Counted from the stretch's first letter, positions 8,967 to 56,787 are shown. The stretch is 64,000 nt of DNA from Candidatus Oxydemutatoraceae bacterium (GCA_965220085.1 CBDCOZ010000003.1:640001-704000); one strand, 5' to 3'. Translations and numbers: made by a program. The notes: a model not told the origin generated them from the letters alone.

Positions 8967-10209
8967 AGAGGCGCAAGCGCAAGCTCAGGTGCTCCACCAG
9001 ATGTATGTTCATCGTGCGGGCTTCGGTGTTGCCGGTGCCATCATAGTTCACCATGTAGGTGAAACTGGCGAAGTTGGGGGCGGCGGCGGAGTCTTCCGGG
9101 GGATAATAGATGAGCTCTCCATTTCGTATTGAGTCCCCGTTTACAGTGAGGTTGTCTGCAATGGCTACTGATCCTCCCAGGAGAAATGTGCCCCTGCCCG
9201 ATGCTATGGTGGTGATTACGGGCACGCTTTTCAGAGCGCCGGTGGGATCGTTCGGGAACATAAAGTCGGATGGCTTGAACCTGTAGGGCGCGTCTGCGTC
9301 GGCGGTAATCGGCACACTCACCGAATTGGCTCTGGCGATGATGGCGCCTGTGGTGCACAGCGTGGGGGCATCGGCGTCGCCGCCCTCTTCGGTGCCTATG
9401 CCGTCGGTGAAACGGAGACAAACGCGGATGTATTGGCCGATATGTTCCCGCCCCGGTGTGAAGGCGTCGGCGGTGGCTCCGGCGATGTTTTCGTATGTGC
9501 CAGCCTGGGTGGCGGACTGTTGCCATTGCCAACTGCGTCTGTGGGTGGGGATGCCGTTGGGCTCGGTGATGCCGGCAGTGCCGGCAATCAGTTCCGCATC
9601 CTCGTTGTAGGCGACGCCCGATGCCGCCGTGACCGTCGGTGCGCCGGTGGCCGCCGTATTTGTGGACGGCACCAGATCTACGGTGATGGTGGCGGCGGGC
9701 CCTTCGCTGTTTGCCGTCCAGGTAAAGGTGGTATAGCCCGCCATGGGCATGTCAGCGCTACGGGGAAAATACTTTACGGTGCCAATGTCAGCAAGGGGTA
9801 TATTCGCAATCGTTCGGCCTACAACAGTGACACCGCGCGTCAACTCAAACTGTCCGTCGCTTTGGAGCACCCCCAACGAAGTCGAGGTTATGCTCCCTGT
9901 GGCATTGGCGGGGGCGGTCTCAAAGTGTACGCTGGTCAAGGTATTGGCATTGCCAAACGGAAAATCACCCGCCGAGAAAGTATAACTGAGGCCCGCCGGC
10001 ACATAGATGGTGTTGTTCTGCGCCACAGGCGCGCTTTGCGCTTGGGCTTGCGCACAGGCAACAAACAGCGCTGGCAACATCAGCAATCGGAGGCTGCGCC
10101 GTATCATCGTTGCCCGCCGATAGGGGGGGGGGGGGGGGGGGGGGGCTATATAAACAGTGGCGGAAGCGCCGGGGGTGCCAGGCTGGTGACGAATTATTTT
10201 GATGTTCAT
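8944..10209 (-). CDS. LEGPLR-family secreted protein 1 (cadherin-like/Ig-like repeats); poly-C23 in frame
   Basis: GGAGA RBS before ATG 10209; poly-Pro from G23 at 10123-10145; signal peptide ...LFVACAQAQA; ends LSLRLRLFLEGPLR. Confidence 0.85.
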   Translation of the reverse strand: MNIKIIRHQPGTPGASATVYIAPPPPPPPYRRATMIRRSLRLLMLPALFVACAQAQAQSAPVAQNNTIYVPAGLSYTFSAGDFPFGNANTLTSVHFETAPANATGSITSTSLGVLQSDGQFELTRGVTVVGRTIANIPLADIGTVKYFPRSADMPMAGYTTFTWTANSEGPAATITVDLVPSTNTAATGAPTVTAASGVAYNEDAELIAGTAGITEPNGIPTHRRSWQWQQSATQAGTYENIAGATADAFTPGREHIGQYIRVCLRFTDGIGTEEGGDADAPTLCTTGAIIARANSVSVPITADADAPYRFKPSDFMFPNDPTGALKSVPVITTIASGRGTFLLGGSVAIADNLTVNGDSIRNGELIYYPPEDSAAAPNFASFTYMVNYDGTGNTEARTMNIHLVEHLSLRLRLFLEGPLR

Positions 10210-10325
10210 GATAAATCTCCGTTGATTAGCAGACGAAATATGCAACTATGCAACCGATTGCCTGCCCATGATAAATCTCCGTTGGTTAGCAGATGAAATA
10301 TGCGACATGCAACCGATTGCCCGCC
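10207..10325. repeat. Two ~60-bp direct repeats covering the RBS/start region of LEGPLR gene 1
   Basis: catgataaatctccgttg...atgcaaccgattgcc occurs at 10207 and 10267. Confidence 0.85.
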
Positions 10326-10326
10326 T

Positions 10327-10354
10327 ATGATACACACTACAAAATAATTTGCAA
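10327..10354 (-). promoter_or_regulatory. Putative sigma70 promoter of LEGPLR gene 1
   Basis: TTGCAA-16bp-TATCAT on the minus strand, in the conserved caggcgcTTGCAA context. Confidence 0.55.
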
Positions 10355-10421
10355 GCGCCTGTATGATGCCATGACATATTGGAAACTTTGGGCAAATATT
10401 GTGAATAGAGGAGTATCGGAC

Positions 10422-11291
10422 TTAACCAAACAGCGCCGGTTTTTCTTTTTCGCCCTGGTCTGCGCGGATGCGGTATTGTCCGCTTTCCAGTCGCTCGCGG
10501 GCGAAAGCGTGATATTCGGGGACCACCTCAAATCCGACATAATCCCGCTTCGCCATTTTGCTGACCACCGCAACCTGACCCGAGCCCATGAATGGGTCCA
10601 GAACCAGATCGCCCGGGTCGCTGGCGTAGGCGAGGATTTTTTTCACCAGTTCGGCGGGCAGCTTGGTCGGGGTCTTTTTGTCGCCTGTCCAGTATTCCCG
10701 CTTGATGACCCACACATCCTCCAGGTCTGCGTAAAGCATACTGCCGCCGTTATCGCGCCGCGCGCCCGGCGCAAAGCGGCAGTGCGGATTGAATTTCCGC
10801 TTGCGGTCGTCCTTGCACAAAAACAGGCAATGGTAATGCGAAGTCACAAACCGGCGGCGGCAAAACACGCCGAATTGATACTTCCAAATGATGTGGTTCA
10901 CCGTGACGAATCCGCACTCGTCCGCGGCGACCAGAATGTCTTTCAGGTTGTTCCAGCCGGAGAAAACAAAGGCGCTGCCGGCGGGGCGCAACAGGCGAAA
11001 CGCCTCGCGCATCCAGGCGCGGGAAAAGTCCGCGTATTCCGCCGCCGGAATTTCGTTGTATCCCTCCAAGACGCGCCCGTCTGTCCGGTTGTAGTTGGTG
11101 CGCGCCGCCTTGAAGTCAATCGCAAACGGCGGGTCGGTCACAATCAGATCCACCGAATCCGGCGGCATCGCGACCATTCCCGCAACGCAGTCGCCGCAAA
11201 AAATCTCGTTGCGCGGAGCCTCGGTTGCCGCGTCCGTCTCGTTCGCTCCGGATGACCGAGCGACCGCTCCCGCATGATTCCGATCGTTCAT
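10422..11291 (-). CDS. Orphan beta-class N4/N6 DNA methyltransferase
   Basis: DLIVTDPPF precedes VLDPFMGSG; no adjacent endonuclease; start taken at MNDRNH. Confidence 0.88.
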   Translation of the reverse strand: MNDRNHAGAVARSSGANETDAATEAPRNEIFCGDCVAGMVAMPPDSVDLIVTDPPFAIDFKAARTNYNRTDGRVLEGYNEIPAAEYADFSRAWMREAFRLLRPAGSAFVFSGWNNLKDILVAADECGFVTVNHIIWKYQFGVFCRRRFVTSHYHCLFLCKDDRKRKFNPHCRFAPGARRDNGGSMLYADLEDVWVIKREYWTGDKKTPTKLPAELVKKILAYASDPGDLVLDPFMGSGQVAVVSKMAKRDYVGFEVVPEYHAFARERLESGQYRIRADQGEKEKPALFG

Positions 11292-11577
11292 GCCCGCATT
11301 ATACACGGCATCATCAAAGCAGAATGACCGCCGCCGGCGCAAGTTTTCCGGAACACGGAAGGGATGGAATGGCGTCGGTCGCTTATGCCGAAGGCGGCGT
11401 ATCATAAGAGCGTCCGTCACCCGGCAAAGCAGCGGGGCTGTGGCGCGGCGCATATCTCGGGGCGGCGTCCCGCGCTTGTCCGCGCTTGACAATCTGCAAA
11501 GAGGTAGTACTCTGAGCGGATATTCCTTTGCTATGAATGGTTTTAACCTGTTCAAACACACTATTCGCTAATAACCG

Positions 11578-12771: not shown

Positions 12772-12783
12772 GGGGAGGGCACA

Positions 12784-14606: not shown

Positions 14607-14626
14607 CATGCTGATAAGATGACAAG

Positions 14627-32283: not shown

Positions 32284-32433
32284 CTATCGCAACGGGCCCT
32301 CCAAGAAGATGCGCAGCCGCAGGCGCATATCAAATCGATGGTCATGGCGGCGGGCGGAAGCCGCGCCGGCTTGAGTCCGACCATCGGCGCCGCCTTCAAT
32401 GGCAATACTCACTTGTGCGCGTGTGTTTGCCAT
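32284..32433 (-). pseudogene. 49-aa mini-ORF or relic ending RLRLRIFLEGPLR, coupled by TAATG to the large upstream gene
   Basis: MANTRAQ...FDMRLRLRIFLEGPLR*; another frame retains AAMTIDL, resembling the pre-terminal TMNIHL of paralogs. Confidence 0.6.
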
Positions 32434-35159
32434 TACCGCAGCGGCCCCTCCAAGAAGATGCGCAAGCGCAGGCGCAGGTCGCCCCCCAGATGGATGTTCA
32501 TGGTGGCGGGCGCGCTACTCTCCGTGCCATCGCTGACAGTGAATTTAAATGAGTCATAGTTTCGCCCCGCTTCCGCACCGTCCGCCGGGTAGTAAGCGAG
32601 CATGGAGATGTCGGACACAGACACCACGTTGTTTTTGCTCGAGCCGGATGTCAACAGCGCTTCGCCGCCTACCAACAAAGCGCCCTTGTCCGGCGCATCG
32701 GTGATGGTGATACCTTGCAGAGAGTCACCGGTGTCCTCGTCGGCAAACGGGAAGTCGCTCTTCTGAAATGCATGGGGCATCTCCTCGGTGGTCATGGTGG
32801 GCACGGACACTTCGCTGTCTTCGGTCATCGGCGCATCGTTGACATTGGCAACCCGCGCACCAGCGGAACAGAGCGGGCCCTCGTCGGTGTCTATGCCATC
32901 TTTAAATGTCAGGCAGACGCGGATGTATCTGCCCACCTGAGCTTGCCGCGGGGTGAAGGCGGCGGCGGCGGCTCCGGCGATGACGGCGTAGGCGCTGTCC
33001 GCCGGGGCGTTGCCGTTGGCGGGGGCGGCGGCAGATTCCCACTGCCACATCAGGGTTCTGCGGTCTATGCCGTTGCCATCGGTGATGTCGTCGACGGAGG
33101 CGGTCAATTCCGTGTCCTCGTCGTAGGCGGCGCCGGCAACCGCTGTCACCGTCGGCATGCCGGTTGCCGTTGATTGCATGGCCGACACCAGGGCTATGGT
33201 GATGACGGCCTCGTTGCTATCCTTCGCATCCGTGCCGGTTCGGACGCTGTACGTAAATCTGTCATAGTTCGCCGTGGGCGTGGTGGCATCCGCGGCAAGG
33301 ACATAGACCAACTCGATCCCTCCTTCTTCTCCGAGTTGCTCAAATTCTTCCCTTGTGAATGCTGCGGGAACGCTCGTTAAAGTTGCAGCAGTAGCGGTGG
33401 CGGGGCGGCGGAGAGACAGCGTACCGTTGTCAGGCAGACTGACTAATTGCATGTGAACCAAGGCATCCCCGTCCTCGTCGCTAAACGGAAAATCATCCGC
33501 CGAGAAATCATAACTGCGGCCCGCGGCCACGGGGATGGTATTGCCCGGCGCCACCGGCGCATCGGCGACATCGGCGGTCGTGATGGAGGCGGAATAGAGC
33601 GGACCCTCGCTCTCGCCCAGGCCATCGTCAAAGGTGATGCGGACGCGGGTATGCATGCCCACCTGGGCCTGGGTCAGGGCGAAGGCGGCATCGGTGGCCC
33701 CGGTTATGTTGGTCCAGGCGCTGCTTGTCGGCGGCGGGGCCGCGCCATCGACCGGGGCGGCTTGCTGCCACTGCCACCTGACTGTGCCCTCGTCTATGCC
33801 GTTGCGGTCAAATATTATAAAGTTCGTGCCGTCATCGTATGCGGCGGTCAGCACGGTGTGCTGGAGTTGGCTGGCGCCCGAGGGGGTGATGGCTGGCGCA
33901 CCGCCGGCGGGGACCTGGTTGGTGTCTGCCAGACGGATGTTCATGATGGCGGGGCCAGCGCTTACATTGGTTTCTATCTCTTCGCCATTGGCATCCACCC
34001 TAATATCGTCGCCATCGTCCTCCACCCAGAATCTGAACTGGGCGTAGAATGAACCTGTCAAATTATAGCGGTCGGTGACAGGCCTATAGCTGACCGTCGG
34101 ATAGTAGGTGAGGTCGCCAGCCTCAAGTTGCGCCACGGTTACGGTGGTCGGGAGGTTGTTGTCGTTCAGGGTTCCGGTGCCATCCAGAACTAAAGTGCCG
34201 GTGCCCTGGGCGTTGCCACTGTGCGGGCTGGGTATAACGATGTTCACCAACGCATCGCCATCGTCATCGGCGAAGCGAAAGTCGGATGGCTTGAAGACAT
34301 ATGGCTCGTCGGAAGTGGCGTCGGCGCGCACCGCAACACTGCTTCGCTGTGCCACCGGCGCATCGTTGGAGTTGACCACCAGCCCCTCGGTGGTGAGGCA
34401 GAAATTTTCCACGGTGCCAAAGTCATCCGTATAGGTGATACAGCAACGGATGCGATTGCCGACATGTTTCTGGTCGGGGGTAAAAGACAGGATTAGTCTG
34501 CTGGTTTCGGTGAATATCCCGTCGCCGCCATTATCGGCGCTCCAAATATATGTGGCATTGTGGAGACTACTCAAACCGTCGGCGTCGTTTATGCCCTCGG
34601 GTATCAGTCCTATGCCCATGCCCTCTACGAGTGCGCCGGTCAGCGCAGGGGCGCCTTCACCGGTTCCCATGGTAAACATGGGGTTGTCGGGCGGATTATT
34701 GAATCCGGTCACGGCATCGTCTATCCGATGGCATCTCGTCTCGGAATTGGGGGTGGCGGCCATATCCATGAACGTGGCGCAGACCTGCAGATACTTGCCC
34801 ACCTGATCCTGTCGCGGGGTTAAGGTGGCGGTGTTCGCGTTATTGGATCTGGTGGCGGTGATGTCGGTATAGGTGCCGCCGTTGGAGTCGGCCTGGCTCC
34901 ATTGCCAAGTGGCGACGAAGGGGTCTGGCAACCCATCGGTGTCGGCTATGTCGCCCTTGGATGCGGTGATGGCGATGTTCCTGTTGGGGGCGCTGAGCTC
35001 TCTGGCGTAGGATACGGCGGGCTCACCGGTGGCGTTCTGCGCCTGTGCCTGAGCGCAGACAGCGAGCATGGCGAGCACAAAAAGACCGCGCCCGATCATC
35101 GTTGCCCACCCGTATGTGCACAGGGGGGGGGGGGTAGCATTAAAAACTTGTTTATTCAT
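32433..35159 (-). CDS. LEGPLR-family secreted protein 2 (large; cadherin-like and disulfide-bonded repeats); poly-C12 in frame
   Basis: RBS GGAGAG before ATG 35159; G12 at 35123-35134; ...LAVCAQAQA; NDAP / DF.F.D.DGD motifs; ends LRLRLRIFLEGPLR. Confidence 0.88.
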   Translation of the reverse strand: MNKQVFNATPPPLCTYGWATMIGRGLFVLAMLAVCAQAQAQNATGEPAVSYARELSAPNRNIAITASKGDIADTDGLPDPFVATWQWSQADSNGGTYTDITATRSNNANTATLTPRQDQVGKYLQVCATFMDMAATPNSETRCHRIDDAVTGFNNPPDNPMFTMGTGEGAPALTGALVEGMGIGLIPEGINDADGLSSLHNATYIWSADNGGDGIFTETSRLILSFTPDQKHVGNRIRCCITYTDDFGTVENFCLTTEGLVVNSNDAPVAQRSSVAVRADATSDEPYVFKPSDFRFADDDGDALVNIVIPSPHSGNAQGTGTLVLDGTGTLNDNNLPTTVTVAQLEAGDLTYYPTVSYRPVTDRYNLTGSFYAQFRFWVEDDGDDIRVDANGEEIETNVSAGPAIMNIRLADTNQVPAGGAPAITPSGASQLQHTVLTAAYDDGTNFIIFDRNGIDEGTVRWQWQQAAPVDGAAPPPTSSAWTNITGATDAAFALTQAQVGMHTRVRITFDDGLGESEGPLYSASITTADVADAPVAPGNTIPVAAGRSYDFSADDFPFSDEDGDALVHMQLVSLPDNGTLSLRRPATATAATLTSVPAAFTREEFEQLGEEGGIELVYVLAADATTPTANYDRFTYSVRTGTDAKDSNEAVITIALVSAMQSTATGMPTVTAVAGAAYDEDTELTASVDDITDGNGIDRRTLMWQWESAAAPANGNAPADSAYAVIAGAAAAAFTPRQAQVGRYIRVCLTFKDGIDTDEGPLCSAGARVANVNDAPMTEDSEVSVPTMTTEEMPHAFQKSDFPFADEDTGDSLQGITITDAPDKGALLVGGEALLTSGSSKNNVVSVSDISMLAYYPADGAEAGRNYDSFKFTVSDGTESSAPATMNIHLGGDLRLRLRIFLEGPLR

Positions 35160-41688: not shown

Positions 41689-41733
41689 GCGCAAGCCGCG
41701 CCCGGCGCTCCGGATGACGGCGACCGCAATCTG

Positions 41734-42502: not shown

Positions 42503-43373
42503 CTACCGCAACGGGCCTTCTAAGAAGAGACGCAAGCGCAAGCGCACATCGGAAGACACCAGGTTGATGGTCATGGTATGTTGTGCGCTGGATGCCGTGC
42601 CATCGCCATCGCCGACGGTGAATCTGAAGCTGGCAAAGTTGGCGGCGGGGGTGGTGTTGGCCGGGGGATGATACCTGAGGGTGCTGATGACATCCCGGCT
42701 GAGGGAGGTGCCGTCGGTGACCGCCACCTGGGAGCTGCCGCTGGCTCTGGTCAGGGTGCCCTTGCCCGATGCTATGGTTTCAACTATGGTTACGCTGGCC
42801 AGGTCGCTGGTCTCCTCGTCCATGAATGGGAAGTCATCGGCCATGAAAATATATGGATTTTCCGCGGTTGCGGCGGAGGACACATTCACAGAGGCATCGT
42901 CGCTGGTGGGCGCATCATTGACAGCGACCACAGCGGTGGCTATCTGCAGGCATCGATTGTCCGTATTGCCGGCGCTGTCGAGAGTGTCCGCGCAGACCCG
43001 CAGATACTTGCCCACATTGGCCTGCAACGGCGTGAAAGTGCCACCGGCGTGAGCGTAAGTGTAGGTGCCGCCATTGGCGTCGGCCTGAAACCATCTCCAA
43101 GATGTGACGTGGACGTCGGTGGTTGGCGTACTGTCAGGGTCCTCAATGGTGCCCTTGTTGGCGGTGATGGGGGAGTCCTCAGTGGGGACGTTTATGCCGC
43201 TGGCGTAGGTGACGGCGGGTTCCCCGGTGGCGTTGCCCTGCGCCTGCGCTTGAGTGCAGACAACAAACAGCACTGGCAACATCAGCGAGCAGAGGCTACG
43301 CCGAGTTAGTCTTGCCCGCCCATTAGGGGGGGGGGGGGGGGGGGGGGGTAGTATTAAAAGTATTTTGGTTCAT
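42503..43373 (-). CDS. LEGPLR-family secreted protein 3; frameshifted at poly-C23 (phase OFF as assembled)
   Basis: ATG 43373 gives MNQNTFNTTP7 then TAA; one C fewer continues ...RRSLCSLMLPVLFVVCTQAQA into ORF 42503-43282, ending VRLRLRLFLEGPLR. Confidence 0.82.
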
Positions 43374-43665
43374 GTTATTTTGTCGGATCATAATCTTACT
43401 CCAAATAAATGTAGTTGTGCGGTATATGTACACAAGCTAATGAGGCACAAACAATACTCAATTGTTTGTGCCTTCTTGATGAGGCACAAACGGTATAAGA
43501 GCACAAACAACTCAGTTGTTTGTGTGTCCTTAGATTGTTGTTTGTGTGTTTTTAATCTAATTGTCTGTGGTTTCTGCAAATTGTTTGCACTCCATCACTG
43601 TTTGCGCTCCACAAACTGTTTGTGGATTGTTTAATGTTACACCATACCATAAATTCAGTCATTCA

Positions 43666-43920
43666 CAAGTTTAATCGTTGCTCTCCTCCTCATGAATTTC
43701 GTTGCACCATATGGATTTCGTTGCACTATACCGCAAGTGCGGTCATTTGCAAGTTTAATCGTTGCTCTCCTCCTCATGAATTTCGTTGCACCATATGGAT
43801 TTCGTTGCACTATACCACAAGTGCGGTCATTTGCAAGTTTAATCGTTGCTCTCCTCCTCATGAATTTCGTTGCACCATATGGATTTCGTTGCACTATACC
43901 ACAAGTGCGGTCATTTGCAA
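43666..43920. repeat. Three tandem 84-bp units, each with a TTGCAA-16-TATAGT promoter on the minus strand
   Basis: Units at 43666, 43750 and 43834. Confidence 0.92.
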
Positions 43921-44085
43921 GCGCTTTTTTATCAAGCCTCAACGACTGCCTCCGGCGACCGGTTGCGTCGTCGTTGCGAGGTGTCGCTATTGCCTGTTGG
44001 CTTTTGTTGAAGCCGGCAATCCGGAATGTTTCTGGCATTATGCAGCCTTCGGTTGCAATCGCAGCAGAGGCGGTATAATGGGCGA

Positions 44086-45636: not shown

Positions 45637-45655
45637 TTGTATTACTTACAGGGTG

Positions 45656-45739
45656 TGCCGAGAAGAGGACTTGAACCTCCACGGGGTTGCCCCCACTGGC
45701 ACCTGAAGCCAGCGCGTCTGCCAATTCCGCCACCTCGGC
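45656..45739 (-). tRNA. tRNA-Leu(CAG)
   Basis: GCCGAGGTGGCGGAATTGGCAGACGCGCTGGCTTCAGGTGCCAG...GTTCAAGTCCTCTTCTCGGCA; long variable arm; CCA not encoded. Confidence 0.95.
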
Positions 45740-45786
45740 AATAGTTATTCAGTGTAGAATGGCTTGCTGAAAGGGCACAATAGTAT

Positions 45787-47946: not shown

Positions 47947-48168
47947 TTCATATCCGTTGTTTTCTTTGGGCATAAAACCGAAGGCGAATCATGCCAGAAA
48001 CATTGCGGGTTGCCGGCTTCAAGCCGCAATAGCAAGCCATCGCCGCCGATAGCCAAGATTTCCATATAAATAGCCGCTTCCGCCGCAAAAGAGGCGGCTA
48101 TCAGTGATAAGGCCAAAGCGCGAAGCCTTGCCCTGTGTGCCCAATATGTCACGGCATCCTACAGGCGC

Positions 48169-48196
48169 TTGCAAATAACTTGCACTGTGGTATAGT
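48169..48196 (+). promoter_or_regulatory. Putative promoter of the LEGPLR array
   Basis: TTGCAA-16bp-TATAGT with extended -10 (TG). Confidence 0.6.
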
Positions 48197-48339
48197 GCGG
48201 TTTAGAAAGGATGGTCGGAGACGCTGGCGCTGTTTTTCTTGCAAAAGGCTTGCGCTTTGCAGCAGACTGCGGCATACGGTGCTAAGAGCACCGACGTATA
48301 ACTTGTATTTACCGGAGATAAACCATGAGGAGTAATAGC

Positions 48340-49528
48340 ATGAATCGACAGACTTCTAATACTTCCCCCTCAAGCAGGCGGAAGATCTTGCATTTGCAGG
48401 CATGTAGTGCGAAGCAAAAAACGTTAATACTACCCCCCCCCCCCCCCCCGCTATGTAAATAAGGGGATTGCGGGCGTTTCGCCGTCTCGCCTCTTCACCC
48501 GTTTTTTATCACCCGCATATCGCAACCCGCCATCCGCCGTAGCGCGGCTGCGTTGCCCGGCTGTGCCCGGTCTGCGGCTTTCGCTATGGCGGCGATTTGT
48601 GGCGCTCTTTGCGCCCGCACGGGCGGCGGCGCCGACCGACGGGGTTGCATCAAGAACTGCCATGCATTGCCTGCTGGCATTGTCCCTGGCATTGGGCGCA
48701 ACCTGCGCCTCGGCCCAGACAAGCGGCATCCCCGCCGCCCAGGATATCAGCATTGATGCCGAGGTTTGGGGTAGTTCCTACGAGTTTGCTCTCAACGACT
48801 TTGCCTTCAAAAATGCGGATGGCAGCCCCACCACCAGAAGTGATTTCGTCGTGGAAATAGCCACTTTGCCTGACCGTGGCATATTGGTTAAAAGAAGCGG
48901 GCGGGTTATTCGCATCAATCAGGTGCAGAGTGCGATCCACCCTTCCGACTTAAGGGGAGGCGAGTCTTTGCAATTACTCTGGGTGCCTCCCTCTGATGTC
49001 ATTTCCGAAACCCCCGGCTATACCAGTTTCACTTATCGCGGCTACAGTTTCAGGGATCCCAGCACCTACAGTTCGCATGGCACCGTCACCATCAATATGG
49101 TGGCGCTTCGCGAAGCGCAACAAATCGCCGATGGTGCGCCCACGGTGACGGGTAGCACGGGCATTTCATATGATGTCAATGCGCCGCTGACGGCTTCCAT
49201 CTATGGCGTGACTGATCGCAACGGCATTGATACAAGCACCCTGGGCTGGAAGTGGCAACAGGCCGATGCGCCCGTCAGCGGTGTTCCCGCAGACAGCGCC
49301 TACATTGACATAGCGGGCACCATGACAACGGGCGGCCTCACCTCCGCCTTCACGCCGCGCGCCGCCCATGTCGGCAAATACATTCGCGTATGCGCCTCCT
49401 TCAAGGACCAGCACCCCATGCCGGAATCCGAGGAGCAATGCACCATCGGTCTTCCTGTGGAAGGTGCGTCGTCCGGCGCAAGTTTGCGTTTGCGTCTGCG
49501 TCTCTTTCTGGAAGGGCCGTTGCGGTAA
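48340..49528 (+). CDS. LEGPLR-family secreted protein 4; frameshifted at poly-C17 (phase OFF)
   Basis: ATG 48340 after GAGGAG; C17 at 48433-48449 leads to TAA at 48460; 16 C would read RYVNKG...RFLSP... into ORF 48563-49528. Confidence 0.82.
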
Positions 49529-50631
49529 TGGAAACTTCACATAGGAGATATTTAAAAATGTTTGCAGTACTTACATCCATGCATCGCCTTGCGGGCATAG
49601 CGAGCGCTTCGCCGCATAAGCTTGCCGGTCGCTTTTTATCGCCCGCACATAGCAACCCGCCATCCGCAAAGCGGTGCGTGTCGGCTGTGCGCGGGTTGTC
49701 GCTGTGGTTGCGGTCTGTTGCGGTGCGGAAGGCAGGCGCCGGCGGCGCCGTAGCTGGATGCGCCATGCATTGCCTGCTGGCATTGTCCCTGGCGTTGGGC
49801 GCAACCTGCGCCTCGGCCCAGACAAGCGGCATCCCCGCCGCTCAGGATATCAGCATTGATGTCCCTGTTGGGAACCTTACCTACATCTTTCAGGAAAACG
49901 ACTTTGCCTTCAAAGATGCGGATGGCAGCACTGCCACCAGAAGCGAATTCGGCGTGGAACTCATCACTTTGCCTGACCGCGGCATATTGATTAGAAGAAA
50001 CGGAGGATTAATCCGCATCGATGGGACGAGACTCTTCGCTCCCACCTTTGACGCCGATTCTGGCAACAATCTGTTCTGGGTGCCTCCCTCTGATGCCATT
50101 TCTGCCGCCCCCGGCTATGCCAGTTTTGCTTATCGCGGCGTCGCTTTCAGCGATGTCAACGCCATAAGTTCGCATGGCACCGTCACCATCAATCTGGTCA
50201 TAGACGAAACCTCGCAGGTAGCCGCCACCGGTGTGCCCGCGGTGACGGGCGGCACGGGCGCTTCATATGGAATCAATGCGCCGCTGACGGCTTCCATCTA
50301 TGGCGTGGCTGATGACAATGGCATTGATACAAGCACCCTGAGCTGGAGGTGGGAAGAAGCCGATATCCCCGCCACCGGCACCTCTGTAGCCCGTGAGGAT
50401 GCCTACGGCGATATAGCGGGTGCCGCGACAACGGGCGGCATCACCTCCGGCTTCACGCCGCGCGCCGCCCATGTAGGCAAATACATTCGCGTATGCGCCT
50501 CCTTCAAGGACCAGCACCCCACGCCGAAAGACGAGAAGCGATGCAACGTCGGCGTTCCTGTGGTCAATCCGTCGTCCGGCTCAAGTCTGCGTTTGCGCCT
50601 GCGTCTCTTTCTGGAAGGGCCGTTGCGGTAA
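49528..50631 (+). CDS. LEGPLR-family secreted protein 5 (paralog of protein 4), coupled by TAATG
   Basis: METSHRR leader, ...ATCASAQ signal cleavage, ends LRLRLRLFLEGPLR. Confidence 0.85.
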   Translation: METSHRRYLKMFAVLTSMHRLAGIASASPHKLAGRFLSPAHSNPPSAKRCVSAVRGLSLWLRSVAVRKAGAGGAVAGCAMHCLLALSLALGATCASAQTSGIPAAQDISIDVPVGNLTYIFQENDFAFKDADGSTATRSEFGVELITLPDRGILIRRNGGLIRIDGTRLFAPTFDADSGNNLFWVPPSDAISAAPGYASFAYRGVAFSDVNAISSHGTVTINLVIDETSQVAATGVPAVTGGTGASYGINAPLTASIYGVADDNGIDTSTLSWRWEEADIPATGTSVAREDAYGDIAGAATTGGITSGFTPRAAHVGKYIRVCASFKDQHPTPKDEKRCNVGVPVVNPSSGSSLRLRLRLFLEGPLR

Positions 50632-50674
50632 TGGGAAACACACTTTATGTACAAACCACATCGGGAGTCATACT

Positions 50675-51418
50675 ATGAATAGACAAATTTCTAATACTGC
50701 CCCGCATTGGCGGGCAACACTCACCCGGCTTAGCCTCCGGTCGCCGATTGCGTCTTCACGCGGGGCGTCTGATTTAAGTTCGCATCATCTTAAAATTGCG
50801 GGAGGGATTTGCGCGGCGATGATGCTCGCTTGCGCATTCGCCGCGAACAGCGTGTCAGCGCAAACTTGTCCGCAGGGACAGGAAAATGTTCGCGGAACTT
50901 GCCGCAATGTTTGCGCCGACGGAGAAATGCGAATCACTTCCACAGTGTCGGGTTTCGAATTTAACACCGGTTGCTTTCCCGATGCGGAGATTGCCATTGT
51001 GGATGACTGCAGGGATGCGGGATGGGGGGACGGCACCGGCGACGGAGTCGGAATATTTTTTTCACTGGGGCTGTTGGGTTGCCAAATTCCGTCCGAGCTT
51101 TATGCCAGCACATCCTCGCGAGCAGACAGCCTCTGCTACATCCGAGGGGGCGCGCCATTATGCGCAGACATGTACGGCGCTCCGCCGGCTTTTCCGAAAG
51201 CCGCGGAACACCCCGATGTCACAGTAGGGTCCAATGCTTTCTTTGTGGCAAATTGCGACCGCAACGGGAATGTCCCCGGCGGTTATCCGCCGGACCGCAA
51301 CTTGAACGGCGAAACCGAATGCAGTTGCAATCCGGGTTCGCACTTCGGCGAATATCCGAACTGCGCTCCGGGCCCGCGTTTGCGTCTGCGTCTCTTTCTG
51401 GAAGGGCCGTTGCGGTAA
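50675..51418 (+). CDS. LEGPLR-family secreted protein 6, cysteine-rich body
   Basis: RBS GGAG; extended leader, ...AANSVSAQ; many Cys; ends PRLRLRLFLEGPLR. Confidence 0.82.
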   Translation: MNRQISNTAPHWRATLTRLSLRSPIASSRGASDLSSHHLKIAGGICAAMMLACAFAANSVSAQTCPQGQENVRGTCRNVCADGEMRITSTVSGFEFNTGCFPDAEIAIVDDCRDAGWGDGTGDGVGIFFSLGLLGCQIPSELYASTSSRADSLCYIRGGAPLCADMYGAPPAFPKAAEHPDVTVGSNAFFVANCDRNGNVPGGYPPDRNLNGETECSCNPGSHFGEYPNCAPGPRLRLRLFLEGPLR

Positions 51419-52584
51419 TGGAAACTTCACATAGGAGATATTTAAAAATGTTTACAGCACTTACATCCATGCGCCGCCTTGCGGGCATAGCGGGCGCTTC
51501 GCCGCATAGGCTTGCCGGCCGCTTTTTATCACCGACACATCGCGACTCGCCATCCGTCGTAGCGCGGTTGCATCGCCCGGCTGTGGTCTGGCTGTTGCTT
51601 CCGCTGGCGCTGCTGTCCGCTCTGGCCTCCCCCGCGTTCGCGCAGTCGCTCAGCTTTGCATTTGATCTGAGTGATCGGGTAACGGTCACAGGCCGGACCA
51701 TAAGCTGGCAGTTGCCCGCAGTTCGGCAGAGCGGCGCCTACGCCTATGCGCTCGCACCCGCAACCCTGCCCGCAGGGATGACATTCTCCGCCGCCACCCG
51801 GCAAATTACGGGCACAGTCACAGCCGCCATGGCCAAAACGGAGTACACATACACCGCCACCAACGCAGACGGCGGCTCGGTGAGCGGGACTTTCGCCATT
51901 GAAGTGTTTCAGGGGCCCACATGGGAAGCCAGAGTTGGCTTCTCCCTCGCCACAACACTAGCCACTCTGGCAGTAGCTCAGGACTTGGGGGGCGATAATC
52001 AAATTTGGCTGGCGGGCGAGGCTTTGCCTGGCATGTCGATCAACCCCGTTGGCGGCACCATACCATATGCCTATACGCTATCGCCCGCGACCCTGCCCGC
52101 CGGTGTGACCGGCGCAATAAACCCTCAAATTACTGACTGGTTTCAGTTTTCCGGAACACCGACAGAAGCCATGCCCACCACCACCTACACGCTGACGGCG
52201 ACGGATTCGGCCAGCCCTCCGGTGTCCGTCGATTACACCTTCACCATCACGGTGGAAGCCGATACCGCGCCCGATTTTGGCGATGCATCGGTGGGCACCC
52301 GTATTTGGCCGCCCGGCACGACCGCAACGCTGGTATTGCCCGCAGCCACCGGCGGCAATGGCGCCATCACCTATGCGATCACTCCGAATCTGCCCGACGG
52401 CCTCGCCTTTGATGCCGACACCCGCACCATCAGCGGCGCACCCTCAACCGCTACGGCCGTCGCCGAATACACCCTCACCGCCACCGACGACGAAGGCGAC
52501 ACGGGCACGCTGACCTTCGGCATAGACGCGATGCACCCCATGCGCTTGCGTCTGCGCCTCTTCTTAGAAGGCCCGTTGCGGTAG
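51418..52584 (+). CDS. LEGPLR-family secreted protein 7 with three putative-Ig (He_PIG-like) repeats
   Basis: TAATG start; LPAGMTFSAATRQITGT, LPDGLAFDADTRTISGAP; ends MRLRLRLFLEGPLR. Confidence 0.87.
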   Translation: METSHRRYLKMFTALTSMRRLAGIAGASPHRLAGRFLSPTHRDSPSVVARLHRPAVVWLLLPLALLSALASPAFAQSLSFAFDLSDRVTVTGRTISWQLPAVRQSGAYAYALAPATLPAGMTFSAATRQITGTVTAAMAKTEYTYTATNADGGSVSGTFAIEVFQGPTWEARVGFSLATTLATLAVAQDLGGDNQIWLAGEALPGMSINPVGGTIPYAYTLSPATLPAGVTGAINPQITDWFQFSGTPTEAMPTTTYTLTATDSASPPVSVDYTFTITVEADTAPDFGDASVGTRIWPPGTTATLVLPAATGGNGAITYAITPNLPDGLAFDADTRTISGAPSTATAVAEYTLTATDDEGDTGTLTFGIDAMHPMRLRLRLFLEGPLR

Positions 52585-52657
52585 CGCGAATCGCCGCCGG
52601 CGGCGAACATGATATTTGCCCCGCGCGTCCGATAGGTCACGGCAATCCTACAGGCGC

Positions 52658-52685
52658 TTGCAAATGATTTGCACTGTGGTATAGT
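52658..52685 (+). promoter_or_regulatory. Putative promoter, second module of the array
   Basis: TTGCAA-16bp-TATAGT in near-identical context to 48169. Confidence 0.6.
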
Positions 52686-52895
52686 GCGGTTCAGAAAGGA
52701 TGGTCGGAGACGCCAGCGCTGTTTTTCTTGCAAAAGGCTTGCGCTTTAGCAGATTACAGCACTAAGAGTACCGACATTAAATAATCCGCAAACAGTTTGT
52801 GGAGCGCAAACAATACTCAATTGTTTGCGGCTTCTTAAATTGTTTGTGTACATAATGATTGTATTTACCGGAGGTAAACCATGAGGAGTAATAGC

Positions 52896-54889
52896 ATGAA
52901 CCGACAAACTTCTGATACTTCCCCCTCTAGCAGGCGGAAGCGATCGCATTTTCGAGCATATATCTTGAAATACAAAACCTTTAATACCCCCCCCCCCCCC
53001 CCCCTCCTCCTGTAGCCACTGAACAGCGGTTCAGTTGCCGCAGCCTTCGGTCGCTGACCATCCTCACTTTGTTTGCGTTGTGCGCTCAGGCACAGGCGGC
53101 CACGCCAGTGCCCAAGGACAGTAGCATAGATGTGTATATATCTGCCACCGCCACCAACCCGTACACTTTCAAGGCCGGTGATTTCCCGTTTGAAGATGCC
53201 GATGGCGATGCTCTTTCAAGCATCAGCATAGAGACCCTGCCCGATAAGGGTACCCTGCGGGTGGGCGAATCAGATGCCACCCAGTTCCAGCAAGTGACCG
53301 CCGCCGCCATCCCCACCATCACCTGGCGCCCCGCATTGAATCAGTCCGCAGGCAACAACCACACCAGCTTCACATTTGGCGTACACACCAGGGGCAGAAG
53401 CATAATGACCGGCACCGTCACCATCAACCTCATATATGTGAATTCTCCCGCCACCGGCGCCATTATCATTCTGGACACAGGCGGCTTTGCCCTGACCGAC
53501 ACCCACGCACCGGACGAACACGAGGCTCTGGCCGCCCGCGCGGACTCCATAACCGATGCCGACGGCTTGAATGTCAACCTGACCTCAAGCCAGCGATGGC
53601 AATGGAGCGCGGATGACGCGGGCAACGGCGTATTCGCCGCCATCGCCGGAGCCACCATGAGCACCTTCACCCCCCGGGCCGGGCATACGGGCAATGCCCT
53701 GCAGGTCTGCTACAGCTTCACCGATGACCGCGGCGGCATGGAGCAGGTGTGCGCCACCACTCAGCCAGTCGCCGATGTGAACAGCGCTCCGGTGGCCATA
53801 GACAACACCGTATCCGTGCCCTGGACCGCCACCGAGAATGCCCAATTCTCCATGAACCTGAACCACTTCACCTTTGAGGATGCCGACCATCATGGCCTGC
53901 ACAGCCTCATCATAACCGCGCTGCCATCAAGGGGCACTCTTACCTTCGCCGGCGTCACTGTGAGATCTTCATTTCTGCCTTCCCAACTAAGCAGATCCGG
54001 TCTCGTTGCGGGCCGCCTCGCATACTATCCGGCGCCAAATGTGGCTCAACAGGCCGCCGCAGGGTACGACAGCTTCACCTTTCAAGTGGTCGACAATGGC
54101 CCCGGCGCAGAAGCCAGCAGCGCATCCGCCACCCTGACCATAGATCTGGTGGCCCCGGCAATGCAGATGCCAGCCACTGGCATGCCCAGCATCATCGGAG
54201 TTCTGGACCCGGTCACCGGCGGCTATCAGGAAGGCCAAATTTTGGCCTCTAACACAGTTGGAATAGACGACCCCAACGGCATAAACCAGCAGACCCTGAC
54301 AAGGGAATGGCAGGTATCTGCCACCGAGAACGGACCCTGGACCCAGGAATCAAGCAGCTTATTGCTGCTGGAACAAAAGCATGTGGGCGGGTATGTGCGC
54401 TTGTGCATCAGCTTTGATGACCTGCACCCCGCCCCCAACAGAGAGGGGCCTTTGTGCACCATGGCTTTCCCCGTTGCCAACCTCGGCGACCAGCCAATAC
54501 CGCAAGACCGCACCATCCAGGTGCGATTGGATGCCAGCATGGCAAGCCCCTACAGATTCACCGCAGCCGACTTCCCATTCGAGGATGAGGATAACGACGG
54601 CCTTGCAAGCATCACCCTGGAATCAATCCCTGCCGTCGGCACGTTGCGCGTGGGCGATGCCGCCGCCGTCGTCGGGCAGGTTGTGGATGTCGACGACATC
54701 CCCGCCATTAACTATTACCCGGAGCCCGGTCAAGCCTCCGCTGAGGGCTACGCCTCTTTCAGATTCAGGTTAACCGACGACAGCAACGACGGCGGGCGCA
54801 GTGACAGCTTAGGGGCTGGCACCATCACCATAAATCTGGGGGGGCTTACCTTGCGCTTGCGCCTCTTCCTGGAAGGGCCGTTGCGGTAA
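52896..54889 (+). CDS. LEGPLR-family secreted protein 8 (cadherin-like repeats); frameshifted at poly-C18 (phase OFF)
   Basis: ATG 52896; C18 at 52987-53004 leads to TAG at 53013; 19 or 16 C would read ...CRSLRSLTILTLFALCAQAQA into ORF 53069-54889. Confidence 0.82.
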
Positions 54890-54932
54890 TGCGAAACGCA
54901 CTTTATGCACAAACCATATCAGGAGTAGAACT

Positions 54933-55056
54933 ATGAACAGACAAATTTTTGATACGCGCCCGCGCAGTCTTGTAAGTAAGGGGATTGACTGGCGACCGGC
55001 AATGACCCGGTTTAGCCTCCAGTCGCCGATTGCGTCTTCATGCAGGATGTCTCATT
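54933..55056 (+). pseudogene. Leader-only relic paralogous to the 5' end of gene 50675
   Basis: MNRQIFDT...WRPAMTRFSLQSPIASS vs MNRQISNT..WRATLTRLSLRSPIASS; interrupted by a copy of the rnr 3' end and upstream module. Confidence 0.7.
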
Positions 55057-55292
55057 CGCGGGAGAAGGCGCTAGTTTGTATCCGTTGTTTTCTTTGGGCA
55101 CAAAACCGAAGGCGAATCATGCCGGAAACATTGCGGATTGCCGGCTTCAAGCCGCAATATCAGCGGCGCCGGCAGCAACGATTTCCATATAAATAGCCGC
55201 TTTCGCCGCAAAAGAGGCGGCTATCGGTGATAAGGCCAAAGCGCGAAGCCTTGCGCCGTATGTCCCATATGTCATGGCGATTCTACAGGCGC

Positions 55293-55320
55293 TTGCAAAT
55301 GATTTGCACTGTGGTATAGT
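55293..55320 (+). promoter_or_regulatory. Putative promoter, third module of the array
   Basis: TTGCAA-16bp-TATAGT. Confidence 0.6.
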
Positions 55321-55586
55321 GCGGTTCAGAAAGGATGGTCGGAGACGCCAGTGCTGTTTTTCTTGCAAAAGGCTTGCACTTTAGCAGACTACGGCATACG
55401 GCTAAGAGTACCGACATTAAATAATCCGCAAACAGTTTGTGGAGCGCAAACAGTGATGGAACGCAAACAATTTGAGGAACCACAAACAATAGTATTGTTT
55501 GTGCTCTTATATCGTTTGTGCCTCTAAATACTGTTTGTGTACATAATGATTGCATTTACCGGAGATAAACCATGAGGAGTAATAGC

Positions 55587-56787
55587 ATGAACCGACAAAA
55601 TTTTAATACTGCCTCCTTTAACAGGAGGAAGCGATCGCATTTTCGAGCATATATCTTGAAATACAAAACCTTTAATACCCCCCCCCCCCCCCCCCCGCTA
55701 TGTAAATAAGGGGGTTGCCAGCGTTTCGCTGTATCGCCTTCTCACCCGTTTTTTATCACCGACACATCGCGACTTGCCATCCGTCGGAGCACGGTTGCAT
55801 CGTCTGGCCGCGGCCGGGCTGCCGGTTGCGCTATTGTTGCTGTCTGTTGCGGCCTCCCCCGCGCTCGCGCAGAGCAGCTTTGATGGCAGCCTACCGGATC
55901 GGAGGTCTGCCACAAATGTTAGCGTATTCTGGACTCTCCCCAAAGCTCTTCCGGAAGGCGCCTACACCTATGCGCTTGCGCCCGCCACCCTGCCTGCGGG
56001 CCTGACATTCTCGGCCTCCACCCGGCGAATCACGGGTACGACCACAGCCGCCATGGCCGAAACGGAGTACACATACACCGCCACCGCCGCAGACGGCGGC
56101 ACACTGAGCGGGACTTTCACCATTGAAGTATTGCGGGGGCCCACATGGCTTCTGGGCGCCAGGTTCTCTACTCTGATGTCTACCCAGGAGTTGGGGGGCG
56201 ATAATCAGATTTGGCTGGCGGGCGAGGCTTTGCCGGGTTCTTATGAAATCTTCCCCAGTGGCGGCGTTAGGCCCTACACCTATACCCTGTCACCCGCGAC
56301 CCTGCCTGCCGGTGTGACCGGCGCAAGCAACGATCTTGGCTTTTTTGAGTTTTCCGGAACACCGACAGAAGCCATGCCCACCACCACTTATACGCTGACG
56401 GCGACGGATTCGGCCAGCCCCCCGGTGTCCGCCGCATACACTTTCACCATCACGGTGGAAGCCGATACCGCGCCCGATTTTGGCGATGCATCGGTCGGCA
56501 CCCGTATTTGGCCGCCCGGCACGACCGCAACGCTGGTATTGCCCGCAGCCACCGGCGGCAATGGCACCCTCACCTATGCGATCACTCCGGATCTGCCCGA
56601 CGGCCTCGCCTTTGATGCCGACACCCGCACCATCAGCGGCGCACCCTCAACCGCTACGGCCGTCGCCGAATACACCCTCACCGCCACCGACGACGAAGGC
56701 GACACGGGCACGCTGACCTTCGGCATAGACGCGATGCACCCCATGCGCTTGCGTCTGCGCCTCTTCTTAGAAGGCCCGTTGCGGTAG
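55587..56787 (+). CDS. LEGPLR-family secreted protein 9 (He_PIG-like, paralog of protein 7); frameshifted at poly-C19 (phase OFF)
   Basis: ATG 55587; C19 at 55678-55696 leads to TAA; 18 C would read RYVNKG...RFLSPTHRDLPS into ORF 55774-56787. Confidence 0.82.

Follow-up and report, generated by a model that had tools for sequence, protein, structure and literature searches.

The window analyzed here, a 64,000-nt stretch of DNA, raises the question of why several genes of one family carry a long run of cytosines near their 5′ ends, and whether these runs act as ON/OFF switches. A scan of the whole window recovered exactly six C/G homopolymers of at least 12 nt, at the same positions and with the same lengths (23, 12, 23, 17, 18, and 19 nt, in window order) as in a preliminary description of this DNA, which had proposed phase variation with slipped-strand mispairing as its cause. 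The coding strand carries C in all six (G23, G12, G23, C17, C18, and C19 as plus-strand letters); random sequence of the same composition would be expected to hold 0.03 runs of at least 12 nt and 6.5e-5 runs of at least 17 nt per window. The runner-up is a G9 run at 60620-60628, in frame inside a gene that we take, from its translation read by eye, to be a pantoate-beta-alanine ligase, in agreement with the earlier statement that no housekeeping gene in the window has a run this long.

Poly-C Tracts in the Window

Translation placed every tract between an upstream, SD-preceded ATG and the signal-peptide core, in six genes ending in ...RLRLFLEGPLR (Table 1; at locus 1, an SD-like GGAG lies 7 nt 5′ of the ATG). 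In loci 1 and 2, the leader ATG, a poly-proline stretch, and the signal peptide share one reading frame (ON). Each of the other four is off by one base (OFF): their leader ORFs end 0, 3, 3, and 3 codons past the tract, and in the shifted frame nothing interrupts reading as far as the family stop, with a sequence similar to the leaders of paralogs (NGRARLTRRSL..., RYVNKGIAG...). The two ON and four OFF assignments made previously were upheld in every statement. The call for any single locus is provisional, as it rests on homopolymer lengths from a metagenome assembly that was probably built from long reads, and soft, since tracts of 12-28 nt may be miscalled in such an assembly. Two tract-less family genes begin with an ATG that overlaps the stop of the preceding gene, so that the influence of a tract may extend beyond its own gene.

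Table 1. Coordinates of tracts, reading frames, and promoter-like elements in the window.
Feature	Coordinates	Strand	Description
Locus 1, whole ORF, ON	8944..10209	-	Leader ATG (MNIKIIRHQ...) through tract to ...LRLRLFLEGPLR stop; 421 aa (translation)
Locus 1, poly-C	10123..10145	-	23 nt, in frame, read as Pro (scan and translation)
Locus 2, ORF, ON	32433..35159	-	MNKQVFNAT-PPP... to ...FLEGPLR stop; 908 aa; cadherin-like and Big_9 domains
Locus 2, poly-C	35123..35134	-	12 nt, in frame (scan and translation)
Locus 3, body frame	42503..43324	-	NGRARLTRRSLCSLMLPVLFVVCTQAQAQ... to FLEGPLR stop; open from tract onward
Locus 3, leader ORF	43323..43391	-	MIRQNNMNQNTFNTT-P8-stop; TAA directly 3′ of tract; second in-frame ATG at 43373
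Locus 3, poly-C, OFF	43326..43348	-	23 nt; frames join at 22 or 25
Promoter-like element, locus 3	43725..43920	-	Three copies in 84-nt tandem repeat, upstream of locus 3
Promoter-like element, locus 4	48169..48196	+	TTGCAA-N16-TATAGT (TG-extended), 237 nt 5′ of tract 4
Locus 4, leader ORF	48340..48462	+	40 codons; MNRQTSNT, relic interrupted C run, second leader copy without ATG, tract, LCK-stop
Locus 4, poly-C, OFF	48433..48449	+	17 nt; frames join at 16 or 19
Locus 4, body frame	48449..49528	+	RYVNKGIAG..., ~70-residue extension, signal peptide MHCLLALSLALGATCASAQ, then FLEGPLR stop
Tract-less family gene	49528..50631	+	ATG overlaps locus 4 stop (TAATG)
Family gene, fixed collapsed tract	50675..51418	+	MNRQISNTAP-HWRATLTRLSL...; leader and body continuous
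Tract-less family gene	51418..52584	+	He_PIG domains; ATG overlaps stop of gene at 50675 (TAATG)
Promoter-like element, locus 5	52658..52685	+	TTGCAA-N16-TATAGT, upstream of tract 5
Locus 5, leader ORF	52896..53015	+	39 codons; MNRQTSDT..., relic tract, ...KTFNT-P5-LLL-stop
Locus 5, poly-C, OFF	52987..53004	+	18 nt; frames join at 19 or 16
Locus 5, body frame	53006..54889	+	PPVATEQRFSCRSLRSLTILTLFALCAQAQA... to FLEGPLR stop; Big_9
Truncated family leader fragment	54933..55196	+	MNRQIFDTRPRSLVSKGI...; likely pseudogene
Promoter-like element, locus 6	55293..55320	+	TTGCAA-N16-TATAGT, upstream of tract 6
Locus 6, leader ORF	55587..55709	+	40 codons; SD AGGAG 8 nt 5′ of ATG
Locus 6, poly-C, OFF	55678..55696	+	19 nt; frames join at 18
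Locus 6, body frame	55696..56787	+	RYVNKGVASV..., signal peptide ...LLLLSVAASPALAQ, three He_PIG Ig domains, FLEGPLR stop

Genome-Wide Distribution of the Tracts

In the genome as a whole, 86 C/G runs reach 10-28 nt, with a mean of 19; those of at least 12 nt number 83 against 0.8 expected, and no A/T run exceeds 9 nt. Of the 86, 81 lead into an uninterrupted ORF with the family tail, C being the coding-strand base without exception, and in these loci the tract comprises 11-28 C. The extent given in the preliminary description was correct for the six loci of the window but too narrow for a system of 81 loci genome-wide, with long tracts in related genera too. An SD-like motif lies 5′ of the chosen leader ATG in 71 of the 81 loci. 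By frame, 22 are ON, 37 need -1, and 22 need +1, a distribution that does not differ significantly from uniform (chi-square p = 0.06). The -1 state is in excess (37 vs 22), a point against the slipped-strand reading.

In all 59 OFF loci, the body frame is open through to the tail (bodies of 161-979 aa), and the leader ORF ends at a median of 4 codons past the tract. Only two recent paralog pairs have both flanks 95-99% identical, and their tracts differ in length (C13 vs C19 and C18 vs C15), the one indirect indication here that tract length changes. Tail-bearing frames that lack a long tract number 139, including 32 fragments shorter than 150 aa. Metagenome and protein searches for a second strain found none, and the one set of raw reads did not cover this organism.

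These counts bear on two alternatives. If the tracts were real but their assembled lengths wrong, most or all of the genes could be in frame and fixed in cells; homopolymers of 12-28 nt are difficult for every sequencing platform, and the sole independent data are Logan contigs, probably from the source sample, which mask variants and break at tracts. Such an artefact, however, would need miscalls at 59 of 81 loci in a consensus of ~27x word depth, and one Logan contig, whose run is probably that of the source sample, spans the tract at locus 5 with exactly 18 C. Tracts this long would be hypermutable even if every call were wrong, and we regard wrong lengths as a quite improbable explanation. 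Mutational decay, in which a lineage-specific expansion of C runs inactivates a bloated family and the OFF genes are young pseudogenes, seems to us similarly improbable. The 32 short fragments and the truncated leader in the window are compatible with it, as are the relatives, in which some tracts also sit at apparently intergenic sites (10 of 31 sampled have no downstream frame of 100 aa). Decay is nevertheless hard to reconcile with uninterrupted bodies reaching the conserved tail in every OFF locus, with rapid stops in the OFF frames, and with a single, precise tract position at which a frameshift would be cleanly reversible and the mature protein unaffected.

Translation of the Leader

For comparison with the long-tract loci, we used the 107 family members of at least 150 aa without a long tract, 37 of which carry the leader motif (consensus M-N/K-R/K-Q-x-F-N-T). 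A single open frame spans leader and body in 35 of these 37 collapsed-tract paralogs (binomial p = 6e-15 against 1/3), as compared with just 22 of the 81 long-tract loci (Fisher p = 2e-12). Furthermore, in 49 of the 81 loci the body frame runs from tract to hydrophobic core without an ATG, GTG, or TTG, which leaves the upstream ATG as the only start from which the signal peptide can be made; in the window, locus 5 lacks all three codons over this interval. As judged from these sequences, the tract is within a translated N-terminal leader, where a change in length would shift the frame, and the frame is scrambled only where the tract is long, with OFF bodies that are intact.

Against a strict switch, a body-frame ATG is retained past the tract at 24 of the 81 loci, among them three of the six in the window (10123, 35123, and 48433, in the last just before the hydrophobic core), where the OFF state may consequently be leaky. 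At locus 1, this ATG (MIRRSL...) is 5 codons past the tract; at locus 3, the sole ATG past the tract sits inside the hydrophobic core. One OFF frame of loci 1 and 2 would end at a TGA overlapping the body-frame ATG (ATGA), and, given these overlaps and the ATGs at 24 loci, some switches may only modulate expression.

A switch could also act on transcription, with tract length setting promoter spacing, as in Bordetella fim and Neisseria porA/opc, or setting the length of a separate, terminator-controlling leader peptide, as in Streptococcus gallolyticus pil1. A TTTAAT just 5′ of the tract looks like a -10 hexamer, and the leader in OFF loci is formally a separate small ORF. However, an SD and ATG are located upstream of the tract, and an exact promoter-like element lies on the coding strand, 168-509 nt 5′ of the tract, at 27 of the 86 tracts (32 copies across the genome) and never on the opposite strand at tracts. 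The in-frame fusion of leader and body in the fixed paralogs also argues against such control, and no predicted terminator-like site directly follows tracts 43326, 48433, 52987, or 55678; the nearest to the first is a weak 5-pair stem ~40 nt past it (43287-43271, minus strand), and the nearest to the last (55809-55830) is >110 nt past it. A promoter-spacer switch, in which the tract would separate the promoter hexamers or else separate the -10 from an activator site, was rejected on the position of the tract downstream of SD and ATG and 168-509 nt from the promoter-like element, and a leader-peptide/terminator attenuator was rejected on the fusion and on the four scanned tracts. We consider a transcription-level switch of either kind highly improbable.

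Proteins Encoded by the Family

The translations contain, past the tract, a Sec-type signal peptide comprising an n-region, a hydrophobic core, and an AQA motif. The passengers are 35-54% identical to autotransporter passengers, and 6 of 13 non-self homologues elsewhere carry the beta-barrel domain PF03797. No match to PF03797 was obtained among the window proteins or in the whole genome (99% completeness); instead of a beta-barrel, the family proteins end in a 14-residue RLRLRLFLEGPLR tail. Assignment to the type Va (classical) autotransporters was rejected for this family, which shares with them an N-terminal Sec signal peptide and a repetitive passenger domain but is without the C-terminal 12-stranded beta-barrel translocator (PF03797).

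Proposed Mechanism

We consider it likely that the poly-C tracts in the translated 5′ ends of these secreted Ig/cadherin-like surface-protein genes are hypermutable and constitute a slipped-strand ON/OFF contingency system, probably of a known kind and unusual in scale and tract length. Transcription would probably start at the conserved promoter-like element 168-509 nt upstream, and the ribosome would initiate at the SD-preceded ATG, translating a short conserved leader and then the C run as poly-proline. With an in-frame run length, reading would continue into the basic n-region, the hydrophobic core, and the AQA cleavage site. Slipped-strand mispairing at replication that added or removed one C would shift the body away from the leader's frame; the leader ORF would then terminate a few codons on, and the exported protein would not be made until a further slip restored the frame. 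Because the poly-proline stretch would lie within the cleaved presequence, the mature protein would be unaltered by tract length. With 81 switchable genes, a different stochastic subset of the family would be displayed by each cell lineage.

Three structural premises of the slipped-strand reading offered previously stand, namely a tract in a translated leader, frames scrambled only at long tracts, and intact OFF bodies; slippage itself, its reversal, display at the surface, and any benefit are inferred. To our knowledge, high slippage rates have been seen for homopolymers this long in all bacteria examined. A point against the reading is that this genome has intact MutS and MutL, unlike Campylobacter and Helicobacter; Neisseria also retains both. 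According to the available parts of the reports, NalP, AusI, and NanH3 are switched by poly-C tracts in 5′ coding regions (PMC5472700; 10.1101/2020.09.16.300947).

Alternatively, the frame could be corrected without heritable change: RNA polymerase or the ribosome would slip on the C run and yield a mixture of frames whatever the DNA length, making the tract an expression dimmer rather than a heritable switch, possibly together with slippage of the DNA. The tracts (mean 19 nt) are far longer than switching at the DNA level needs, the frames are not significantly different from random, and intact OFF genes could also be explained by continuous low expression; in insect endosymbionts, transcriptional slippage at poly-A tracts rescues frameshifted genes. 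On the other hand, known transcriptional slippage occurs mainly at A/T runs, and rC:dG hybrids are stable. Frame correction also explains the in-frame collapsed tracts no better than slipped-strand switching does, and we judge it unlikely.

Relatives and Known Phase-Variable Systems

Of 29 genomes from two related families, 26 contain long poly-C tracts, vs 0 of 11 from two other families, and the relatives have 8-45 tracts of at least 12 nt. These lie at the 5′ ends of genes for a DNA methylase with HNH, a sulfotransferase (ATG then C70), and FN3/Ig secreted proteins, which are classical contingency-gene classes.

About a dozen opa paralogs of Neisseria carry CTCTT repeats where the signal peptide is encoded. 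Both systems are multigene surface-protein families with a separate repeat in the presequence-coding part of every paralog, and with independent translational ON/OFF states, combinatorial display, and removal of the repeat product with the signal peptide (these last three predicted here). The opa pentamer is located in the hydrophobic core, whereas our tracts are homopolymers (11-28 C) in an added leader, upstream of the n-region; the ~12 opa loci compare with 81 here, in an uncultured non-pathogen whose switching is putative.

The phasome tracts of Campylobacter jejuni, Helicobacter, and N. meningitidis are typically 8-15 nt. Reports on them include PMC8355987, PMC2823697, and PMC5084427, with 115 candidate genes in the title of the last. 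Those phasomes are similar in combining many poly-G/C loci with a small genome and are likewise enriched in surface and modification genes, but they are spread over unrelated genes, whereas 81 of the 86 tracts here belong to one family, with a common leader cassette and a mean of 19 nt. N. meningitidis NalP and AusI have coding-region poly-C, and AutA/AutB have AAGC repeats immediately after the start codon (PMC5472700). These slippage tracts are likewise near the gene 5′ end, and the passenger domains of our family are homologous to autotransporter ones, but the Neisseria autotransporters are single genes with a beta-barrel, in contrast to a large family without one. The Gardnerella sialidase gene nanH3, in the available part of its report, has a poly-C of 8-14 adjoining the signal-peptide coding region, with length varying within cultures (10.1101/2020.09.16.300947). 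It shares with our family a poly-C at the signal-peptide boundary and a signal peptide that annotators miss when out of frame; by that account, it differs as one gene with a shorter tract, placed after the signal peptide rather than before it, and with variation shown by experiment.

Biological Implications

More tentatively, and with some doubt, two families of uncultured gammaproteobacteria could share a lineage-wide capacity to maintain ultra-long poly-C (11-28 nt in this genome and, after an ATG in a relative, up to 70 nt) for contingency in general, deployed in this genome as a portable cassette over 81 barrel-less, autotransporter-derived adhesin paralogs. The parts of the cassette may be the promoter-like element, a 5′ UTR rich in hairpins, SD-ATG-MNRQxFNT, and the tract itself. 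If true, we know of no larger phasome within a single family; its surface states would nominally number 2^81. Two further layers are possible: the poly-proline product could make in-frame expression graded and EF-P-dependent, and the TAATG stop/start overlaps could let one tract gate neighboring tract-less genes.

Phase-variable surface repertoires have been seen mainly as a device of host-adapted pathogens. The bacterium is probably host-associated, a guess from the single coded organism label shared by the runs that contain it, one of them a Hi-C library; in its 2.5-Mb genome, adhesin-like proteins that appear individually switchable account for ~3% of genes. Most family genes will be mis-annotated by gene callers, with loss of the signal peptide, and will be given arbitrary frames by MAG pipelines. 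The tracts are ~2x the length of those in well-studied systems, which raises the question of what prevents their collapse with MutS and MutL present. Provided that the tracts do vary, this clade would be using stochastic changes of the cell surface as a general strategy.

Poly-C Tracts in the Window and Across the Genome

A homopolymer scan of the window recovers six C/G runs of at least 12 nt, at exactly the positions given in the preliminary description, and on the coding strand of the respective gene each of the six is a run of C. The longest C/G run after these is a G9 (60620-60628), which lies in frame within a gene whose product we take, from its translation alone, to resemble pantoate-beta-alanine ligase. 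At this base composition, chance would supply 0.03 runs of at least 12 nt, and 6.5e-5 runs of at least 17 nt, per window. The loci are named here by the start of their tracts, and all belong to the LEGPLR family of secreted, Ig/cadherin-like, adhesin-like proteins. A locus is termed ON when leader and body share one frame, and OFF when the tract length puts the body out of frame.

The frames previously proposed for the six loci all hold in three-frame translations and coordinate checks, with the ON/OFF call at any single locus being provisional. Loci 10123 and 35123 are open from a Shine-Dalgarno (SD)-preceded ATG, via a poly-Pro stretch and a signal peptide, to the stop after ...RLRLFLEGPLR. 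At loci 43326, 48433, 52987, and 55678 there is a one-base frame offset, which would be restored by 22, 16, 19 (or 16), and 18 C's, respectively. The leader ORF of these loci stops 0, 3, 3, and 3 codons past the tract, and in all four the other frame is open as far as the family stop.

The genome to which the window belongs (2.49-Mb, 3 contigs, 99% complete) carries 86 C/G runs, 10-28 nt in length (mean 19.1, median 19), and in a genome-wide homopolymer scan no run of A or T exceeded 9. Run lengths are bimodally distributed, with almost none between 9 and 12. Most of the runs (81/86) head an uninterrupted frame on the C strand with the end ...RLR[LIV]FLEG[PS]LR. With the closest ATG that follows an SD taken as the start, 22 of these 81 loci are in frame; the frame would be restored by one C fewer in 37 and by one C more in 22 (chi-square p = 0.06 vs uniform frames). 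Among the OFF loci the one-C-fewer state is the commoner, an excess that could come from slippage bias, selection, or assembler bias. In total, the genome has ~220 frames that terminate in the family tail (RLRLRLFLEGPLR), including 139 without a long tract. This C-terminal tail matches no model in the family library (NCBIfam), and full-text literature on LEGPLR returned nothing relevant to it. The GC skew of contig C3 turns at ~0.1 and ~1.25 Mb; a replication strand bias was considered and rejected, as a hand count of ~40 co-directional vs 28 head-on tracts gives no clear rule.

Organization of the Putative Switch Loci

Upstream sequence of ~350-450 nt is common to three plus-strand loci (48433, 52987, and 55678), and this block opens with a promoter-like element (TTGCAA-N16-TATAGT) whose -10 is TG-extended. 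The genome has 32 copies of the element, which is found 168-509 nt 5' of 27 of the 86 tracts, every time on the coding strand, and may be the promoter of the LEGPLR family. This distance argues against a promoter-spacer switch, and no terminator-like site was found directly 3' of the tracts scanned, as might be sought for a leader-peptide/terminator attenuator; either of these transcriptional explanations is unlikely. Upstream of locus 43326, the element is present in each copy of an 84-nt tandem repeat (43636-43921; 3.4 copies, 95% matching).

The promoter-like element is followed by a region dense in short CAAACA...TGTTTG inverted repeats, and then by the SD (AGGAG), the ATG, and a short leader (consensus M-N/K-R/K-Q-x-F-N-T, with the end ...TTTAATACT(A)), directly 3' of which is the C run. 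At 55427-55503, between the element and the SD, the sequence is packed with repeats of 17-18 nt and with perfect hairpins (CACAAACA...TGTTTGTG type), and a similar repeat- and hairpin-filled region occurs on the minus strand at 43400-43620. Loci 48433, 52987, and 55678 each carry two tandem copies of the leader module. Behind the first copy (MNRQTSNT) stands a relic tract, in the form of a short C run with interruptions, and the second leader end and live tract are found ~70 nt past it. The second copy at locus 48433 is without its ATG. Because of this duplication, the translated leader of the three loci is 39-40 codons long.

On the 3' side of the tract are a basic n-region (e.g., NGRARLTRRSL), a hydrophobic core, and an AQAQA-type cleavage motif, with a conserved extension of ~40-70 residues (RYVNKGIAG...FLSP...) before the core in loci 48433 and 55678, which form one subfamily. 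The mature parts contain He_PIG, Big_9, and cadherin-like Ig domains. Coordinates for these features, along with two genes from related genomes, are listed in the table.

Positions of tracts, promoter-like elements, and leader modules in the window, and of two tract-bearing genes in relatives
Feature	Position	Strand	Remark
G23 on + strand	10123-10145	C on coding strand	homopolymer scan
G12 on + strand	35123-35134	C on coding strand	homopolymer scan
G23 on + strand	43326-43348	C on coding strand	homopolymer scan
C17 on + strand	48433-48449	C on coding strand	homopolymer scan
C18 on + strand	52987-53004	C on coding strand	homopolymer scan
C19 on + strand	55678-55696	C on coding strand	homopolymer scan
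Promoter-like element	48169-48196	+	upstream of locus 48433
Promoter-like element	52658-52685	+	upstream of locus 52987
Promoter-like element	55293-55320	+	upstream of locus 55678
Promoter-like element, three copies	43725-43920	-	inside 84-nt tandem repeat upstream of locus 43326
Duplicated leader modules	48340-48432, 52896-52986, 55587-55677	+	loci 48433, 52987, 55678
Sulfotransferase-family gene	L114, G008:C1:1320196-1323208		relative's genome; 70-nt C run directly 3' of ATG
DNA methylase fused to HNH domain	L092, G019:C1:9129-12141		relative's genome; C16 after ATG-GTG

Other family sequences lie among the tract loci. At two points, 49526-49530 and 51416-51420, adjacent family genes overlap through a TAATG that joins the stop of the first to the ATG of the second, and both overlaps are followed by an identical 30-nt stretch with a second SD and ATG. 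This arrangement suggests that the tract-less genes at 49528-50631 and 51418-52584 are translationally coupled to their upstream neighbors. A truncated family leader (MNRQIFDTRPRSLVSKGI...) without a body is found at 54933-55196, and was probably left behind by recombination or decay between loci 52987 and 55678.

Translation of the Leader

Of 107 tail-bearing frames that are at least 150 aa in length and lack a long tract, 37 show the leader motif close to the 5' end, and in 35 of these 37 the leader and body share an open frame (p = 6e-15 vs a one-in-three expectation), in comparison with 22/81 in frame among loci with long tracts (Fisher p = 2e-12). Of the two that do not share a frame, one is probably a frameshifted copy and the other matches the motif by chance. 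An example from the window is the gene at 50675-51418 (MNRQISNTAP-HWRATLTRLSL...), whose tract is reduced to four C's. The fusion of leader to body in such fixed paralogs further argues against the promoter-spacer and attenuator explanations. Additionally, 49 of the 81 tract loci, including locus 52987, lack any body-frame ATG, GTG, or TTG from the tract to the hydrophobic core. Because of these shared frames and absent start codons, the leader is taken to be part of the preprotein, its frame being randomised only at long tracts.

Translation from a start downstream of the tracts, which the preliminary description names as contrary to its reading, has no start codon available ahead of the core at those 49 loci and has a potential start at 24/81, where a body-frame ATG is retained. 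This ATG is apparently the ancestral start, and homologous autotransporters of other assemblies begin at the same point (e.g., MRRRVLWPLALL...). Within the window, it is present at loci 10123 and 35123, both of which are now ON, and at locus 48433, where it lies just before the core. At loci 10123 and 35123, one alternative frame would stop at a TGA overlapping the body-frame ATG (ATGA). Given this overlap and the retained ATGs, some of the switches may be leaky.

State of the OFF Genes and Tract Length

In every one of the 59 OFF loci the body is open, for 161-979 aa, to the conserved tail, while elsewhere in the genome the family includes many fragments, which favors a recent or reversible inactivation rather than decay. 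Plain decay, miscalled tract lengths, and transcriptional or ribosomal slippage (by which every gene would be partly expressed) together are given about a quarter of the probability. In a gapped comparison, identity of 95-99% across both 150-nt flanks is seen in just two paralog pairs, and both differ in tract length (C13 vs C19; C18 vs C15), which is the only evidence here for tract instability and is indirect. The structural part of the phase-switch interpretation, namely a tract within a translated leader and intact OFF bodies, is well supported, and the change of tract length is its presumed part.

Three sequencing runs of one study, none of them RNA, were compared with 35001-55000. Sets X1 and X2 are Logan contigs, a format in which minor variants are not kept, and one contig of X1 (probably the source of the assembly) spans 52987-53004 with 18 C's. 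The comparison showed no indels, which speaks neither for nor against length variation. Raw Hi-C reads of the same study (X3) have zero depth on 35001-55000, except for low-complexity poly-C reads at two tracts. Illumina reads from this set that are almost all C pile on tracts 48433 and 52987, and the false joints between the two are a mapping artefact that read-based work on these loci should guard against. Metagenome contigs scanned for exact matches to the leader plus C12 yielded three loci, none of which matches this genome (blastn) and none of which has an open frame past the tract. Matches in the protein search were limited to paralogs of this genome and homologues of at most 56% identity from other assemblies. 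The closest foreign homologues of the LEGPLR family are full autotransporters. C/G runs of 7-9 nt lie within open frames in 65/112 and 7/14 cases, vs 243/300 random positions; as a gauge of homopolymer accuracy this comparison is confounded by the family leaders and was set aside.

Tracts in Relatives and Descent of the Family

A run of 12 C's occurs in 15/18 genomes of the same family and 11/11 of a second family in the order, and in 0/10 and 0/1 genomes (~1 Mb) of two other families. Five relatives have 8, 12, 13, 15, and 45 tracts of at least 12 nt, vs 83 here. Among 31 distinct tracts sampled in those five, 16 have an ATG within 45 nt reading into the tract (abutting it in 6 of the 16), and 14 combine an ATG of this kind with a frame of at least 100 aa downstream. 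The genes downstream include an N6/N4 DNA methylase that carries an HNH domain, a sulfotransferase whose ATG leads into C70, and FN3-rich as well as Ig/cadherin-like secreted proteins. Methylases, sulfotransferases, and FN3/Ig secreted proteins are classical contingency-gene classes, and the methylase-HNH gene of G019 is a candidate phase-variable methyltransferase.

The autotransporter barrel (PF03797) is present in 6 of 13 non-self homologues (P0005-P0017), and was not detected in the whole of this genome. The LEGPLR family descends from autotransporter passengers; membership in the type Va autotransporters themselves was ruled out, as there is no barrel. MutS, MutL, and EF-P are present and intact in the genome.

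Comparison with Known Phase-Variable Systems

The way of working proposed here from sequence is the same as that of translational slipped-strand phase variation, for which the opa family is one of the closest parallels. NalP, AusI, AutA, and AutB of N. meningitidis are close parallels as well (PMC5472700). So is nanH3 of Gardnerella, in which a poly-C tract of 8-14 next to the region for the signal peptide was shown to vary within cultures (10.1101/2020.09.16.300947). The LEGPLR system differs from these parallels in having 81 paralogs within one family, a mean tract length of 19, and a shared leader cassette with the tract before the signal peptide; its host, moreover, is uncultured and no known pathogen. 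With the tract placed ahead of the signal peptide, only the cleaved poly-Pro stretch would change. Among the papers listed from the library searched, none dealt with the LEGPLR tail or with switching at poly-C tracts in symbionts of this sort. The slipped-strand type of switch is already known, and what is unusual in this probable example is its scale.
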